From Callorhinchus milii (taxonomy: Eukaryota), in the NCBI RefSeq assembly GCF_018977255.1, contig NW_024704742.1:88104001-88168000 (forward strand): a stretch of DNA of 64,000 nucleotides. Direction: 5' to 3'. This document shows positions 10,366 through 63,162 of the stretch, in pieces. A program made the position numbers and the translations under genes. The notes beneath the pieces are model-generated. The model was not told where the DNA came from. It was given only the letters and a program-made list of their open reading frames with translations, and made no database searches. Every line of letters starts with the position of its first letter. Position 1 is the first letter of the stretch.

Positions 10366-11829
10366 AGTAGTTAACGTTAGCATATTTTTATGAAGTTAAA
10401 ACTATTTATTAAAATACATTTACTCAATCTTCTTTCCATTTTTACTTTAGAAACATAATTCATAATGGGGAACAGTTGGGAACTTAAATGAGTTCCACTT
10501 GTAAGTGACAAATTCATAGTTCACCAGAACCTGTGTTCAGCTCATTAAATCTCCTTTACTGCATTAGCAGAAACTTGCTTAGGCTGTACGATTTATTTTT
10601 CCTGTATAAGCCATAAATAGAAAACTTTAAGCTCATTCAATGAAATTGTAAATCTATTTTGGCAATTGCAGTGTTTTTCCTAAATTGTTATTTCTACTCA
10701 CAATGCAGATATTTCCTGCTTTATGGTACTTACACTATAATACTTTATAGCAGGTAAGATTCAACATTAGTTAAAGCACAAACCTTTTTTATGAATGTGA
10801 GATTCAAGTAAATTGTTTTAAACGTGTACATATAAAAAAAATTGTTAGACTTTTCAGACCTCATGCACCAGAAAATCTAATCCAGTAAGGAGTGAAATAC
10901 CCTACACTATATAGGTACAGTTGATTCAAATAAGAACCCTGAAAAGCAGGTGGGGAGGTATTGATCAGCATACTGAAAGGTAAGCTGCATCTATAATTAG
11001 CTTTCACATGATGAGCTTGAAATACAGCCGTCAGTTTTAAAAAAAAATGTCTGTTGCAGTTTATTTGTGTTGTAATTTTGTTCATTTCAAGGAAATGAAC
11101 CAAAACCCAGTTGGTTTTGTGCATAGATTCCACTTTAGTACAACAAAGGCATTCAGTTCACCCAGTTCTGCAGGCTGAGACTTGCCCAAACAAGTACCTA
11201 ATAATAAAGATGTTACAATATTGTTCAGTAGGACTGCTGTTGTGTACAGCGAGTGAAAATTGTGTATTAATCTGAAACTATTGACCTTTACTGTATGGTA
11301 CAGTAATGAGCACAATAAACAAATAAAGTCATTTGTTTGCACGTCTGTTCTTATTGATTTTACATTTTGTCTTTTGTAGGGCCTCTTTGAAAGGTAAAGA
11401 ATGCTTTGTTTTCCAGTACACTAAAATGTACTTACATTATATCCCGTCAGAGATTACGTTGAAAAATAAATGCTTGAACTGCTGTTAGCTCATGGCAACG
11501 CTAACTTGCACTGTTATGCATTCCTAAAATTCAGCAGGGGGTATACAGACAGTTAGTAGTTACCCCACAAAAACAATTGGGACTACATTACTGTAATCAT
11601 TTCTGCTCCAGAAATGAGTCACCTTGTGAATTTGTATAGATTATGTTTTAAATTTAGCAGAATTGGTAATGTCCTGATAGTTGAGAGTAGTGAGACTTTC
11701 AAAGCCTTTTTTATTCAGCAATAATAAATGGTATGAAAAATAAAGGCTACATCATCACTTAAGATAATACTTGCATTTGATATAGCGCTTTATCATGTCT
11801 TCGAGATGTCTCAAAGTGCTTCACAGAAT

Positions 11830-12392
11830 ACAACAACAAAATGACATTTGTATAGCGCCTTTCATGTCAGGAGGATGTCCCAAGGCGCTGGACAGACAGA
11901 GTTACGGACCTGAGCTGAGGGTTGGGGTGGGGGAGGCTGGAGAGCAGTTGGGGAAGCAGGGAGATCGAAAGCACGGTCAAAGAGGAGTGTCTTGAAGGTG
12001 GAGAGGGAGGGGGCGAGATGGAGGGACTGCGGGATGGAGTTCCAGAGGGTGGGTGCAGAGTAGCGGAAGGTCTGCCCGCCGAGAGTGGCCAAGCAAGGCG
12101 GGGGACGTGAAGCAGGCCAGAGCCTGCTGAGCGGAGGGAGCAAATAGGGTGTTAGGAGGTCGGATAGGCAAGTGGGAGCAAGACCATGGAGGGCTTTGAA
12201 GGTGAGAACCAGGATCTTGAACTGTATCCTCTGTGTGATGGGAAGCCAGTGGAGTTGGGCAAGGATGGGGGTGGTAGTGTTGCGGAGGCTGGTGCGGGAG
12301 AGGACACGGGCTGCAGAGTTCTGGATGATCTGCAGCCCGTTGGGGGGGGGGGATGGGGGGGTTTGGAGAGGCCGACAAGCAGTGAGTTTGTA
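11830..12392 (-). mobile_element. L2 LINE 3' fragment inserted into a SINE (SINE parts 11764-11829 and 12393-12679)
   Basis: Translation LQIIQNSAARVL...LAQLHWLPITQRIQFKILVLTFKALHGLAP, typical of the L2 ORF2 C-terminus. Confidence 0.9.
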
Positions 12393-12689
12393 TACGCTGT
12401 AAAGTGAATTGACTACTTTGTGGGTGAACCGCGGGAGCCAATTGCGCACAGCAGTGTCCCACAAACAGTCGTAGATTGAGTAACAACATTTTTTACTTTT
12501 TTTAAAAAAGGAATTATCTCTGGAAATGTGATCCACTAACAACTGGGTTCCGACTTACTGCTAGGTAAACAGAGGCTTGTGGAGTAAGGAAACTTGCCTA
12601 ACGTTTCGCCCTGCCAGGAATCAAACCCAGGTCCTCTCACTTGTGAGGCGAGTACTCTAATCACTGAGCTACAGGACTCAAAAGTGGTG

Positions 12690-34085: not shown

Positions 34086-34568
34086 TTGCCCAGTCTGTTT
34101 GCTTTAGTTAGTCAGTTAATCATCAGAATCTACAAACTTAAATTTATTAAGAACATTTCCTAAACTTTTATTGCAGAGGCTGATGAAATAGTTGGGTTGA
34201 GCGCTAAGTGGAGTCAAGTTAGAAAATCGGGTCAAAGGCCAAGAATCATGATTCTATCTCAGATTTTGCAAATTCTTATTTCCATTTCAAACCTTGCAGT
34301 GTTGAGCATGGTGGGAACAGAGCCAAGTGTAGAAGGGACTAAGCTAAAGCTGGGAGCAAGGCAGAATTGCATGAAATTAATTTTTGCATGATTGTGGATT
34401 GTCATTTGCAATTCATAAAATATTCATTATTTGCAGATTTGTACTTTTAGCGCTCAACCCAGCTGTTTCACCAGCCTCTGTAATAAAAGTTTAGGAAATG
34501 TTCTCAATAAATGTAAATATGTAGATTCTGATGATTAACTGATTAATTAAAGCAAACAGACTGGACAA
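34086..34568. repeat. Foldback element: 122-bp inverted arms (~91% identical) around a 239-bp spacer; possible MITE
   Basis: 34086-34207 is the reverse complement of 34447-34568 with about 11 mismatches counted by eye. Confidence 0.88.
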
Positions 34569-47590: not shown

Positions 47591-48406
47591 TTTAGGAAAA
47601 ATGTCAAGACAATTGAGTGGTTGCAGAGATTTACGGGTTAATACCAGGGATGAGTGGTTTGGCATATGAACTGGAAGAACTTTTTTTGCTGGAACAAAAA
47701 AAGGTTGAGGGGTGACTTGATGGAGGTCTTTAGTCAATAGTCAATAGGGAGAAACTATTTCTACCGGTCAGTGAACCAGGAACTAGAGGGCTTCAAATTT
47801 CCCTGTATCTGGACTCAAATGCGCACTCTCCCTGGAGAGACGTCCCTAATTCCAGAGAGAGTTAGACACAGATTGGCGAGAGACAAGACTTGGGGTCCCC
47901 AGAGTGTGAGTTGGAGTACTGCCTCTACACACAGGGCAGCGTCTAAGGGTACTGCTGCAGTTTAACCAGCTAAAATCATAGAAATTTACCACACAGAAAA
48001 GGACATTTATCTGCCCTTTCCCCGTACCTTTGTACAACAAAGACAACTTGTATTTATATAGTGCCCTACATGGTAATGTCTCGGAGCACTTAAAGCTGTT
48101 TATTTTTTAAGGTGTTTTATCTAGTCCCCTTTTGAAGGCCAATAGAGATTCTGTCTCATAGCAGGGCATTCCATATCATAACTACTCTGTGCAGGGAAAT
48201 TTGAAGCCCTCTAGTTCCTGGTTCACTGACCGGTAGAAATAGTTTCTCCCTATTGACTATTGACTAAAGACCTCCATCAAGTCACCCCTCAACCTTTTTT
48301 TGTTCCAGCAAAAAAAGTTCTTCCAGTTCATATGCCAAACCACTCATCCCTGGTATTAACCCGTAAATCTCTGCAACCACTCAATTGTCTTGACGTTTTT
48401 CCTAAA
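47591..48406. repeat. 215-bp near-perfect inverted duplication of a decayed CR1 fragment
   Basis: 47591-47805 versus 48192-48406: one mismatch seen; 386-bp spacer. Confidence 0.93.
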
Positions 48407-48799: not shown

Positions 48800-50390
48800 A
48801 CAACAACAACAAAATTACATGTGTAAAACGCCTTTCACGTCGGGAGGATGTCCCAAGGTGCTGAAAGACAGGGATCAGGACTCAAGCGTGGGGGCAGGGT
48901 TAGGATGAGGGAGGGCAGAAGGGGTAGGAAGGAGGCTGAAAGCACAGTCAAAAAGGAGGGTCTTGAGTCATGCCTTGAGGGATGCAAGAGAGGGAGAAAA
49001 GTGAAGGGATTGCGGGATGGAGTTCCAAAGAGTGGGGGCAGAGAGGCTGAAAGCCCGGCCGCCGATGGTAGAGCAGGTCGGGCGCGAGACCTGGAGCAGG
49101 CCAGTGTCTGCTGAGCGGAGGGAGCAGACAGGTTGATAGTGGATCAGCAGGTCAGAGATGTAGGAAGGGGCAAGGCTGTGAAGAGTCTTGAAAGTGAGGA
49201 CAAGGATTTTGAATTCTATCCTCTGAGGGAGCCAGTGGAGCCAGTGGAGCCAGGCGAGGGTGGGGGTGATGGGGTCATGGAGCCTGGTGCAGGGAGAGGA
49301 CATGAGCTGCAGAGTTCTGGATGATCTGCAGCTTGTGGAGGGAAGAGTTGGGGAGTCCAACAAGCAGTGGTTTGCATAGTCGAGGAGCCTCGATGTAATG
49401 AAGGCGTATATGAGGGTTTCAGCGGCCTGTGGTGTGAGACAGTGTCAGAGCCAGGCAACGTTGCGTAGGTGGGGGAAGGCAGAGCGGGTCATGGCATGGA
49501 TATGGGGGAGAAAGGATGTAGAGGTTGAAGAGGAGGGGACAGAGGACAGAGCCCTGAGGAACACCAAACGAGACTGGAAAAGAAACGTTGGTGGAGACAA
49601 ATTGAAGAAGGTATGAGAGATGAGACCTGAACCATTCAAGGACAGAACCTTGAAGCTTGAGGTGAGAGGAGAGTCGGTGGAGGAGGATGGAGAGGTTCAC
49701 GGTATCGAAGGCAGCAGAGAGGTTGAAGACGATGAGGAGGCAGAGGGAGCCCAGGTAACAGATGGACACAATGTTGTTCGTGACCTTGACCAGAGCACGG
49801 AAACCTGCTTGGAGGGGCTCGTGAAGGGAGTAGTAGGAGAGGAATGAGTGAAGCTGAGAAGCAACAACTCTTTCAGCCAGAGCTTGAGGAGAGAATGGGC
49901 GAGGCATGGGAGGGTGGACAGGAGCCGGTTGCGGGAGGAGAATATGAGCCTGGCATTGTTACTTTGCTTCCAAGATTATCATGTAGTAGAAAGGATGATT
50001 TGGTGGAAGCGAGGGTGGAGCGGTACATTTTGATGTGGTCCAGACAGATCTGCTGGTGGACCGTTAGGTCAGACTTGAAGCAGGTGCGTTTGGCAACCCA
50101 CATGTGACCCTTGAGGAAGCAGAGGTAGCTGGTGAACCAGGATAAGGTTCGTGAGTAGGAGGCGGTTTGGGGGAAGAGGGGAAGGAGTTCAGATGACTCG
50201 AGGTCAGTGGGGAGGGATTGCGGGAAGATTTTGTTCCAGGGGCGGTAGGAGATGGAGGTGGGTTTGGTGGCGATGGGGAGAGGGATTGAGGAGTTAAAGG
50301 AGATGAAATGGTAATCAGAAATGGCTTTGTCTGTGATTGTGATATCCGAGACACTGAGGCCACTGGGTAGGACATTGGTTTGACAATTTG
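48800..50390 (-). mobile_element. L2 LINE remnant with internal deletions (endonuclease end to 3' tail)
   Basis: AISDYHFISF, NLSAAFDTV, GVPQGSVLCPLLF, LHWLPQRIEFKILVLTFK. Confidence 0.9.
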
Positions 50391-53090: not shown

Positions 53091-53469
53091 CTAGATGCTA
53101 CATAAATTCGATTTGTTGTTGTTGCTGGTTTAAACATGGAGGTATGCTCTAAATCCTAGCATCTTTCGTAGTGCTATTCCAGACAATCATAATTATTTGT
53201 CTACAATTCCACAGTCACTACACTTTGTAGTATCTCCTGGTAAACGTTGTGAGATGTTTTGATGATGTGATCAGGTGCAACGACAACAACAACTTGCAGT
53301 TCTCCCGGACATCTCCTCCCTCCTATCTTCCCACAGTTTTTGTTCTGTAAGCCTCCTTATTGTGGGCAACTTCAACCTCCACTTTACCCCTGTCATCACA
53401 AGTACTCTTGAAATCATCTTCGCCCTGGACAGAGCAAGAATTTGTATCTGACAATAAGACAATCAATAC

Positions 53470-55440
53470 AACAAAATTACATTTACATCTCACATTGGGA
53501 GGATGTCCCAATTTGCTGGACAGTCAGTATTTCGGACCTGAGTTGGGGGTCGGGATTGGGGAGGGTTGAGGGAATGGGGGGGAAGGAGGGTGATCGAAGG
53601 CATGGTCGAATAGGAGTGTCTTGAGACTGGTCTTGAAGGAGGCAAGGGAAGGGGTGAGGCGGAGAGATTGCAGCATGGAGTTCCAGAGAGTGGGGGCAGA
53701 GTGGCTGAAGGCCCACCTGCTAATGGTGGGGCGGGCGAGGTGGAGGACGTGAAGCAGGCCGGAGTGTGCTGAGCGGAGAGAGTGGGCAGGTTGGTAGAGG
53801 GTTAGGAGGTCGCAGAGGTGGGGGGAGTAAGGCCATGGAGGGCTTTGAAGGTGAGGACCAGGATCTTGAACTGTATCCTCTGTGTGATGGGAAGCCAGTG
53901 GAGTCGGGTAAGGATGGGGATGATAGGGTCATGGTGTCTGGTGTGGGAGAGGACATGGGCTGCAGACTTCTGGATGATCTGCAGCCTATGGAGGGAGGAG
54001 TTGGGGAGGCTGACAAGCAGGGAGTTTGCATAGACAAGTCTGGATATTATGAATGTGTGTGCGGAGGTCTCAACGGCCTGCGGCGTGAAACAGTGGTGGA
54101 GCCGGGCGATGTTGCGGAGGTGGGGTAAGGCAGAGCGGGTCATGGCATGAATGTGGGGTAGAAAGGATAGTAGAGGGTCAAGCAAGACGCCAAGGTTCCG
54201 GACTGGCTTAGCAAGGTGGTGCCAATCAGGAGAGCCTCGGTTTTGTTGACGTTCAACTGAAGAAAGTTAGCTCTCATCCAGGACTTGATGTCTGGCAGAC
54301 ATTCAGTCAGGACAGCAGTGGTTCTGGAGTCAAGGGTGGAGGCGGAGAGGTAGAGTTGGGTGTCATCTGCATACATGTAGAAGTTGACCCCATATCTGCG
54401 GACGATGTCACCAAGAGGGAGCATCTAGGTATTGAAGAGGAGGGGACCAAGGACAGAGCCCTGAGGAATGCTGTACGAGATGGTGCGGGGGCTAGAGGAG
54501 GAATCATTTGTGGAGATGAAGTGGAGATGATGTGAGAGGTAGGATCTGAACCAGTCAAGGACAAAACCCTGAAGGTTGAGGTGAGAGGAGAGGTGGTGGA
54601 GGATAGAGGCTTGGTCGCAGATGGACAAATGTCATTTATTGCTTTGATCGAAGCTATTTCTGTGCTGTGGGCAACATGGAAAACCCAATTGGAGGGGTTC
54701 GTGAAGGGAATAGTGGGAGAGGAAGGAACGAAGCTTGGAAGCAACGACTCGTTTCAGGACTTTGGAAAGGAAAAGGAGGTTGGAGATGGGGTGGTAATTT
54801 GAGAGCAGGGATGGATCCAGGGAGGTCTTTTTAAGGATAGAAGTGATGACGGCTGTTTTTATTGGGGTGGGATCGGTGCTAGTAGACAAGGAGAGGTTTA
54901 TGATGTCTATGTTTAGAGGGGCAAGGAGGTGGAGCTGGGAGATAAGGAGAGGAGTAGGAATGGGGTTGAGGGAACAGGTGGTCGGTTTCATGTGGGTTAT
55001 AGTGGTGGTGAGAGGAGGGGGAGACAGGTTCGAAGGTGTGGAAGGAGGAATAGGTAGGGGCCGGGTTGGGAGTGGGAGATGGGGAGGGGGGAGAAGACAG
55101 AAGAGCACAGGCAGCTGAGCAGATCCCCTCACATTTGGTTTTGAGGAAGTCCAGCATCACCTCACAGTTGGTGTTGGAGGAACAGGTGAGTGAGGCGTGA
55201 TAGGGTGGGCGGCGGAGCTGATTAGGAAGGAGAAGATAAGCCTGGGATTGTCCTTGGTCTCCAAGATTTCTTGGAGTAGAAGGACGATTTAGCGAGGGCG
55301 AGGGCAGAGTGGTAAGTTTTTATAAGATCCAGATAGTCTGCTGATGGACCATACATTAGATTTACGCCACGTGCATTGAGCGGCACCCACCTGTGCCTTG
55401 AGGGAGTGGAGATGGCTGAAAATAGAGGAAACAAATGAAG
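53470..55440 (-). mobile_element. L2 LINE ~2-kb fragment, frameshifted
   Basis: NYHPISNLLFLSKVLKRVV, SIPQGSVLGPLLF, MYADDTQLY, LHWLPITQRIQFK. Confidence 0.93.
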
Positions 55441-55953
55441 ATTCATCTTGGAATAATGAGGAAGGGAATTGGGAGGAACAACGTGGCATGTGATGTGGTA
55501 TCACATCTGCCTGTTCAGGCAGGAGTTAAAGATCCTATGGTACTATTCGGAAAGAGAAGGGAGTTTCTCCCAGTTTTCTGTTCAATAAATCCCCCAAATA
55601 AAATCAGTCTTCATGGCTGTTTGCGGGACATTGAAGATGGGGTGGTAATTTGAGAGCAGGGATGGGTCCAGAGAGGGTTTTTTAAGTTAGAGTGATGATG
55701 GGTGCTTTTAAAGGGGTGGGAGTCCTGCAGCTCAGTGGTTAGAGCACTCAACTCACAAGCGAGAGTCATTGGTTCAATTCCCGGCAGGGTGAAACCTTGG
55801 GCAAGTTTCCTTACTCCACACGCCTGATAATAATCCCTCAAGAAAAAAAAACAATAAAATTGGTCACTTCAATCCACGACTGTTTGTGGGACACTGCTGT
55901 GCGCAATTGGCTGCCGCGCTTCGCCCAGAAATATAGTCAATTCACTTTACAGT

Positions 55954-56165
55954 ATCAGAAGTCACTGGGAACACTCACAGGTCAGGCAGCATCTACGGAG
56001 AAAGGAAAGTGAGTCAACGTTTCGGATCAACGACCCTTTGTCAGAACTGACCCGAAACGATGACTCGCTTTCCTTTCTCCATAGATGCTGCCTGACCTTT
56101 GAGTGTTCCCAGCCACTTCTGTTTTTGTTTTCAGATTTCCGGCGTCTGCAGTGTTTTGTGTTTTG
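55954..56165. mobile_element. Palindromic Penelope-like non-autonomous element with 13-bp TSD
   Basis: 74-bp inverted arms (55956-56029 / 56048-56121); TSD TTCACTTTACAGT (55941-55953) / TTCACGTTACAGT (56166-56178). The Penelope assignment is from recall of similar shark repeats. Confidence 0.75.
56012..56048 (-). ncRNA. Degenerate minimal type I hammerhead ribozyme motif
   Basis: Minus strand AGTT-CTGACAA-A-GGGTC-GTT-GATCC-GAAA-CG-TT-GACT: stems I and II can pair; core CUGANGA carries G8->A. Confidence 0.55.
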
Positions 56166-56269
56166 TTCACGTTACAGTCTATTCTATGAAGCGCTTTGAG
56201 GCGACTCTGGATGACGCGAAAAGCGCGATATCCAATGCAAGGATTATTATTATTATTGTTCTGTGGACA

Positions 56270-57060
56270 TTGGGGCCGTCGCGCTCACCCGCAAACACAC
56301 CACCGTCCACGCACTTCGCAGCGAAATCCCGCGAAGCTCTTTTAAGACGCGTCGAAGGCGCTGCGTGAAACGCAAGTTATCATTACAAATGGATCGGGAG
56401 TCATTCACACGACGGTAATGGTTAACGGTGAATTATTGATAATAATAATAATAATAATCCTTGCATTTGATATAGCGCTTTTCACGTCAGGAGGACGTCC
56501 CAAAGCGCTTCACAGAACACACTGTAAAGTGAATTAACTGTATATTTGTAGGCGAACGCGGCAGCCAATTGCGCACAGCAATGTCCCACAAACAGTCATG
56601 GATTGAAAATGACCAATTTATTATTGTTTTTGGTTTTGGAGGGATTATTATTTGGAATAATGTCGGAAGATTAGAATGATCATAAATATGATGAGATTGT
56701 TATTCTTCCATCACAATGCAAAGCCTCAGGAGCAATCTGCAGGATCCAGCTATGCTCCTCCAGGCCAGTGGGGGGCGCTGCTTGTGCCCTGGAGCTCTCC
56801 AGGTCCCTCTCTGGTTCTCTCTCTCTCTCTCTGGTGCTCTGTGTCTTTGTCGCTCCCAGTCCTTGAGGCGGGATTTCCGCCGCGAGCAGCAAGTTTGGTA
56901 GAGAGGTAGAGAAAGAAGTGCCAGTTGCAGCCCCTCCACCACTGCCACTCGGAGTATACCTCCGCTCCGGCGAAGCGGCAACCGCCCACTTACTGACTGT
57001 AGTGAAAAGCTCCACACGCGCGCGCCTTAAAGTAATCCGTCGCAGACTTCACGTGTCTGT
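56270..57060. promoter_or_regulatory. CpG-rich upstream element with a CTCF-like site (56763-56780)
   Basis: Dense CpG in a CpG-poor background; CCAGTGGGGGGCGC (1 mismatch to the CTCF consensus); E2F-like GGCGGGA; CACGTG at 57050-57055. Confidence 0.6.
56440..56651 (-). mobile_element. 5'-truncated young SINE
   Basis: Matches the 29141 copy. Confidence 0.9.
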
Positions 57061-61941: not shown

Positions 61942-63162
61942 GGCAACTGTAGCAGGGAATCTGTGCCAACAACATCTCATAAACAACAGTGAGATAAGCA
62001 GCCAATTCATTTGAAAATTTGGGAGTACATTTGGATTAGGAGAGGAATATAAGTCAGGATAACCAAGGCACGGCCCAAGGGTGTGGGGGGGGGGGGGGGG
62101 GGGGGCGTGTGGGCGGTGGATGTTGGGAAGGGTAGTCAATTAAGCTGAATGGTCTGCTCTTGTTCCAGTTTACCAATGAAAGGTAGATTCATTCTGCAAA
62201 CTTCTGAACCAGTTTCAGCTATACCATGGGTAAGATCTGCTGCCACCTATGGATGAAACAAAGAATGAAGAAAGGAATTTCAGAAGTCATTAAAGAAGAA
62301 AGAAGAAACAATAAAGAAAATAAAAATGTTAATAGCAGGGAAAATATTAAACTAACCATGCCCTCGCTGCTTGTCAGTAACCCCTTCTTAAAATCTATAT
62401 TAATTCTTTTGATGTTTTATTAAAACTCTGCTTCAGATTGTGAAGTCAATTTCAATGGAATTGATTGATATTTAAATGTAACTGTGGTGTTTAATTTTCT
62501 AAATTATACCATTAAGTACCAACTGAGTTTTTATGAAGATGTCTTAAGGTGTGTCTATCTCCGACAATGTATTTGTTCTGACTTCACCCATTATAGTTGC
62601 TGAAATGCTCCACACAAATCTATTATAATAATAACTTACATTTATATGGTGGCTTTCATATATAAACATAGGTCTTGTTTCAAAATGATTTATAAAATAA
62701 TAATCCGTGTATTTCGTATAGCACCTCATATAGCATCTTATCACGTCTTTGAGAGTTTCAAAGTGCTTCACAGAATATACTGTAGTGAATTAATAATGTA
62801 TTTTATGGGCGAAATGCAGGAGCCAATTATCCACAGCAGTGTTCCACAAAAAACAATCATGGATTGATTGACCAAATTTTTTTTTAAGGGAATATGACCC
62901 CCAGAAAGTGATCCGCCAATCGACTATAACTGGGTTCCTACTTACTGCTAGGTAAACAGAAGCGTTTGGAGCAAGGAAAGTTGCCTAAGGTTTCACCTTG
63001 CCCAGAAACAATTGAAAATGAAGTGAATGTTATACTGGCAACTGTAGCAGGGAATCTGTGCCAGCAACATCTCATAAACAACAGTGAGATAAGCAGCCAA
63101 TTCATTTGAAAATTTGGGAGTACATTTGGATTAGGAGAGGAATATAAGTCAGGATAACCAAG
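61942..63162 (+). repeat. 126-bp direct duplication (61942-62067 and 63037-63162)
   Basis: One mismatch seen between the copies (gccaacaac / gccagcaac). Confidence 0.93.
62698..63004 (-). mobile_element. tRNA-derived SINE, long subtype, head truncated
   Basis: Similarity to the family. Confidence 0.85.

Follow-up and report, generated by a model that had tools for sequence, protein, structure and literature searches.

Two head-to-head pieces of a high-copy hammerhead repeat make up a fold-back insertion, probably of a Penelope-like element, in a tRNA-headed SINE

A tRNA-headed SINE in the window analysed here (the whole stretch of 64,000 nucleotides from Callorhinchus milii) is interrupted by a 212-bp fold-back, i.e., hairpin-shaped, insert at 55954-56165, which carries a hammerhead ribozyme motif on its minus strand. 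The locus raises the question of whether such a palindrome is itself the unit that moves, as the original prediction held when it described a tiny non-autonomous retroposon, or whether it is what remains after something else has moved. Both of the head-to-head pieces that make up the insert belong to one high-copy hammerhead repeat, and we consider it very probable that a Penelope-like retroelement left them there as the dead end of an insertion and that the palindrome itself is not mobile.

The boundaries of the insert are well defined. It is flanked by 13-bp target site duplications (TSDs; 55941-55953 and 56166-56178) that agree at 12 of 13 positions, for which the chance probability is ~1e-6 for a fixed junction, and the left TSD sequence occurs once in uninterrupted SINE copies. 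When the insert and one TSD were removed, the restored host aligned straight through the junction in 14 of 16 hits to SINE copies elsewhere in the window, and the insert therefore splits a pre-existing SINE. The 5' part of this host (55719-55953, plus strand) shows 84-88% identity to four full-length SINEs of the window and contains a tRNA-like head (55721-55792) scoring 27.8 bits, below the gathering score of 29, while the 3' part with its ATT-repeat end (56179-56260, plus strand) was delimited from the sequence and the SINE alignments. Within the insert, inverted arms of 74 nt (55956-56029 and 56048-56121) differ at seven positions, and a T-rich extension of 42 nt (56124-56165, plus strand), which we read as a Penelope "tail," is present on one side only. 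The insert folds with a z score of -19.6, none of 200 shuffled sequences being equally stable, and no second copy of it was found in the 64-kb window. The split SINE, the 13-bp TSD with one mismatch, the 74-bp arms with about seven mismatches, and the T-rich extension had all been described beforehand, and each of these descriptions was confirmed.

The two components appear to differ in age. The arms of the insert have diverged by 9.5%, corresponding to ~5% per arm since insertion, and the host SINE is 15-18% different from four other copies, which differ by 4-12% among themselves. Judged from these divergences, the order of events is consistent with the SINE having arrived first and the insert later. 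Another SINE copy, on the opposite strand at 56441-56651, faces the host SINE tail to tail (56212-56260 versus 56441-56489), with a 180-bp CpG-rich stretch between the two.

We then considered the hammerhead motif of this copy. On the minus strand, positions 56048-56012 fit a minimal type I hammerhead by descriptor match, by helix energies, and by comparison with the published consensus at every position except position 8. Stem I (AGUU/GACU) pairs 56048-56045 with 56015-56012; the core reads CUGACAA, with C3 at 56044, and is followed by one extra A; stem II (GGGUC/GAUCC) pairs 56036-56032 with 56028-56024; and GAAA (56023-56020) is followed by a palindromic ACGU and the triplet GUU, with the predicted cut between 56016 and 56015. 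This arrangement matches, element by element, the one originally proposed. It also shares with the minimal hammerheads of metazoan Penelope-like elements (PLEs) the extra base between positions 9 and 10.1, the G10.1-C11.1 pair, GAAA, the palindromic C15.2-G16.2, and an NUH cleavage site. The two kinds of hammerhead scan that had been suggested gave different answers: a descriptor with position 8 relaxed matched once on the two strands of the window, against 0.03 matches expected per 64 kb from 30 random sequences, while Rfam returned no hammerhead family either among 15 matches with E up to 10 or among 8 at the gathering score. A descriptor with the strict core (CUGANGA) had no match in the window, 56039 giving A at position 8. 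The Rfam match to mir-641 (39.8 bits versus a gathering score of 100) reflects the hairpin only.

Since G8 is catalytic in the hammerhead, according to PMC6155905, the A8 that faces C3 here is predicted to inactivate this copy; in PMC11167929, the change G8C is described as abolishing cleavage. With position 8 mutated, the hammerhead of this copy is not expected to cut. Even with G8 in place, the folding model predicts that pairing of the arms would hide the motif in the full transcript. When the transcript of the whole insert was folded, all nine pairs of stems I and II had a probability of 0.0, the arms pairing with each other instead; for a dimer, the hammerhead fold can be drawn at -9.3 kcal/mol, compared with -19.5 for the lowest-energy structure.

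To place this copy among its relatives, contigs from 4 of 24 public sequencing runs were mapped on 55930-56190 at 80% likeness. Runs X1 and X5 come from organism A (X5 being RNA only by guess), X7 from organism B, and X8 from organism C. The insert, single in the window, was matched by 4,407 contigs in X1, 9,957 in X7, 9,442 in X8, and 1,763 in X5, and it thus belongs to a high-copy family present in three organisms. Upstream of the right arm, i.e., before 56049, the majority of loose contig ends read an intact CUGACGA in all four runs (90, 160, 213, and 46 contigs), in line with the CUGANGA core anticipated for the family. In X1, depth over the hammerhead core was about one-twentieth of arm depth. 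The G-U wobble in stem II of this copy is a G-C pair in 94-97% of family depth, giving a full Watson-Crick helix, and an A-U variant of pair 10.1-11.1 (behind 56023) was listed in three of the four runs (77 contigs in X1, 102 in X7, and 34 in X5). Compensatory change was thus seen, by listed variants, in helix II only, and no covariation was observed for helix I in the family contigs. The original prediction had made its hammerhead depend on a family with CUGANGA, GAAA, and stem covariation; with the intact core in all four runs and the compensatory pair in stem II, the reading as a Penelope-type minimal hammerhead stands at the family level.

The state of position 8 (56039, minus strand) deserves separate attention. 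The letter giving G8 accounts for 55, 38, 44, and 60% of depth in the four runs, and G was taken as the family majority. The position sits in a CpG, and A8 fits decay of a methylated CpG, as had been suggested from this copy; the share of A8 among mapped contigs (~40-62%) nevertheless lies above that of other CpG changes (6-14%). Over a span of 14 bases, contigs with G8 mismatch this copy at three positions, which deprives them of long exact seeds, and the resulting mapping bias is likely to be behind the excess of A8. It seems doubtful that the excess instead reflects a catalytically dead A8 subfamily that was amplified in three related genomes, so that the family spread without needing its ribozyme. 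If this were true, a lineage with a dead hammerhead would provide genomic evidence bearing on the function of the Penelope hammerhead, with the stubs amounting to a census of dual-priming events.

Aligned to the family, the insert resolves into two pieces. The left piece (55954-56048, minus strand) covers family positions +1 to +95, beginning at stem I of the hammerhead and stopping before the tail. The right piece (56049-56123, plus strand) starts from family position +21 and contains the 3' hammerhead half but no core, with A replacing U16.1 at 56060; with the tail, which family contigs cover at falling depth, it ends 42 nt past the end of the left piece. The two meet at 56048-56049 with one or two bases common to both. 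One base is missing from both arms of this copy, the family having it at 55977 in 82-84% of depth and a matching insertion being listed at 56098-56099, pointing to a single source for both arms. Read on the element sense strand, this copy has G at five positions where the organism A majority has A (56141, 56144, 56153, and 56067 on the plus strand and 55996 on the minus strand); these could stem from a subfamily of greater age or from editing of the template RNA, the count being too small to tell.

The loose ends of contigs also mark a 5' boundary. Among the 24 of 843 loose-end rows listed, contigs halting at 56046-56048 and passing into non-agreeing sequence (agreement of 0.33-0.37) numbered 138 in X1, 117 in X7, and 296 in X8, with no such row listed for X5, against a second class of 66, 146, and 206 contigs, respectively, and 33 in X5, that ran on into one conserved upstream stretch. 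By eye, the 30-letter loose-end consensus of this upstream stretch contains a TATA-like word ~29 nt upstream of position 56048. The A at this position stands in what we take to be an initiator-like context, and 56048 may therefore be the first base of the element RNA. Stem I also begins at this base, which precedes the predicted cut by 33 nt; among the 24 of 843 rows listed, none marked the cut site itself as a contig end. Many copies thus start at stem I, as if copied from uncut RNA, and copies that begin 33 nt before the cut would be a record of RNA that had not been cut. The present insert has neither the upstream TATA-like part of the longer copies nor any open reading frame (ORF).

A common 5' boundary would also be expected if a non-palindromic unit of 95-137 nt were a self-standing, SINE- or retrozyme-like family, driven by an internal promoter and propagated from source copies of its own, the insert then being an inverted double insertion. 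An internal promoter is described for a Drosophila element, and retrozyme families include solo monomers in their counts. We nevertheless regard this explanation as unlikely. A reverse transcriptase (RT) that reaches the start of a pLTR-driven transcript gives the same boundary, and, by eye, the boundary coincides with an initiator-like site, and the short copies lack the TATA-like word that precedes this site. Moreover, the defining trait of non-LTR retrozymes, a head-to-tail array with a hammerhead in each repeat, is not seen here, where the pieces are head to head with a single core.

Whether the palindrome is transcribed and mobilised whole, as a small non-autonomous retroposon, can be judged from pieces that cross its centre. 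There were 13 of these among the 32 listed of 26,257 pieces, and all 13 had different length offsets relative to this copy, ranging from -13 to +7; one X8 piece with an offset of 0, i.e., the same length as this junction, had 15 other letters. No piece spanning the whole stretch was present among the 32 listed. Depth at the junction base 56048 reached 0.04-0.3% of the maximum over the arms and, set against 56039 nine bases off, 0.9-2.2%, although contigs break at repeats and palindromes and depth does not equal copy number, so that junction rarity is a rough measure. Palindromic copies are thus common, each with its own centre, and the mirror half was likely made anew at every insertion. A clean TSD around the entire insert, further palindromic copies in all four runs, and the published non-autonomous Penelope derivatives would each suit a palindrome that moves as a unit. 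Yet the junction remains below 0.4% of arm depth, the listed centres all differ, the window holds one copy, the upstream TATA-like part is missing, and folding of the complete transcript leaves the hammerhead helices unable to form. On these grounds, the retroposon originally proposed was not upheld, and we hold it to be improbable.

A miniature inverted-repeat element (MITE) with a chance resemblance to a hammerhead, for which the long inverted arms, the short centre, and the lack of an Rfam hammerhead might speak, is most improbable and already largely refuted by the family contigs, given that the right arm is not terminal but continues for 42 nt on one side, that centres vary from copy to copy where uniform copies with terminal inverted repeats would be expected, that most family contigs cover a single arm, and that the sole descriptor match exceeds its expectation in a family with an intact core and a compensatory pair.

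For the favoured reading, two head-to-head pieces left by a Penelope-like element, we propose a mechanism by analogy with an anole element (PMC11167929). A protein of the element with RT and GIY-YIG domains would introduce nicks staggered by 13 bases into the two strands of the SINE, and each would serve as a primer for copying uncut element RNA, with synthesis beginning at one or other of two internal starts lying 42 nt apart. The top-strand copy would run from +95 to +1, the 5' end of the RNA, and the bottom-strand copy would span from the end of the tail down to +21, after which the two copies would be joined over the one or two shared bases. Later point changes of ~5% per arm would include that of G8 to A at the CpG. 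Self-priming on an antisense template, as proposed in PMC3846280, would produce the same layout, and we give dual priming about an even chance within the favoured explanation.

Two other routes to a fold-back structure were rejected. In L1-type twin priming on one RNA, the pieces abut, but here they overlap by 73-75 nt. A fold-back through stem II alone would leave a loop that holds no core.

The insert itself contains no ORF for an RT with a GIY-YIG domain, and pattern scans for such an autonomous partner, two on metagenome contigs and one on viral contigs, gave no match. When 30 of the 58 stop-to-stop frames were searched against Pfam, one RT fragment was recovered (49422-49958, minus strand; RVT_1, E 7.7e-10), which is of L2/CR1 type by eye and unlinked to the insert. 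Related decayed LINE RT fragments lie at 11799-12394 and 53468-54182, and the host SINE probably had L2/CR1-type LINEs as its partner class. On the plus strand of the insert, at 56085-56165, an ATG follows a pyrimidine-rich stretch ending in AG, and, given the family-majority base, the frame from 56085 would stay open through the tail, like some Penelope ORF starts. Weak protein searches from this frame, with one query of 30 residues and another of 41 (about half SINE-derived), retrieved one unrelated tandem-repeat protein and no protein, respectively.

The window contains several other repeats. A 215-bp inverted duplication (47591-47805 versus 48192-48406; 99.5% identity) has its halves separated by 386 bp and a shared short stretch directly preceding 47591 and 48192; it resembles the outcome of a recent inversion by template switching or of faulty assembly. 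Inverted repeats of 122 bp with 91% identity and a 240-bp spacer (34086-34207 versus 34447-34568) are a candidate old MITE, and a 126-bp direct repeat with 99.2% identity (61942-62067 versus 63037-63162, ~1.1 kb apart) possibly represents LTR-like ends or a local duplication.

As a single locus, the insert matters little, being one decayed stub among thousands and of a kind described between 2013 and 2024. Taken as a whole and as a natural data set, the family could help to show how inverted copies form and whether hammerhead cleavage is needed for movement, two questions of Penelope biology, since thousands of its copies would allow the two 3' ends, the common 5' boundary, and the variable junction to be tallied. 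A search of titles and abstract openings found no publication on this repeat family, which may be listed in the supplements of a preprint on animal non-LTR retrozymes (bioRxiv 10.64898/2026.07.22.740005).

How, then, does the insert compare with known systems (further comparison literature: PMC2377424, PMC8969392, PMC4350176, and PMC3884650)? The membership of its family among Penelope elements, which we infer, would agree with the residence of minimal hammerheads in metazoan Penelope-like repeats (PMC4209133, Cervera and De la Pena 2014), a report in which solo hammerheads number in the thousands per genome and opposite-strand pairs occur as well. Low hammerhead activity is reported there and in PMC11167929. 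Like those minimal hammerheads, the present motif is of type I, with a 4-bp helix I, an extra base before helix II, G10.1-C11.1, the triplet GUU, no real helix III, and the palindromic C15.2-G16.2. Unlike them, it has A8 facing C3, the described variant being U3-A8, and unlike the reported pairs, its two pieces overlap with no spacer. No cartilaginous fish was seen among the species in the alignment text covered from PMC4209133. The preprint cited above records non-LTR retrozymes in one cartilaginous fish, and the insert resembles these in being non-coding and pLTR-related with a type I hammerhead; they differ from it in forming head-to-tail arrays with a hammerhead per unit.

The closest structural parallels are found among endonuclease-positive PLEs. 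Inverted 5'-truncated copies with a one-sided tail of 30-40 bp are described in PMC8557442 (the tail also in PMC11167929), and rotifer elements show head-to-head pLTRs, TSDs of 8-10 bp, and TATA and initiator (Inr) words (PMC3846280). The insert likewise presents an inverted, 5'-truncated head-to-head copy, an optional tail on one side, a short TSD, and, by eye in the longer copies of its family, TATA- and initiator-like words. It differs from those units in having no ORF and only 95 + 117 nt of element, in a TSD of 13 bp, and in a tail whose 42 nt slightly exceed the 30-40 quoted for PLEs. Finally, for the Poseidon element PAc of Anolis carolinensis, purified protein was shown in vitro to nick the two strands of the target and to extend each of them, reverse transcription starts at two internal sites bounding the tail with uncut RNA as the template, and hammerhead mutants still insert (PMC11167929, Frangieh et al. 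2024). As in PAc, two internal start sites would bound the tail here, ~110-125 nt below stem II of the hammerhead; unlike in PAc, where the ORF starts at stem II, the corresponding reading here stops after a few codons.
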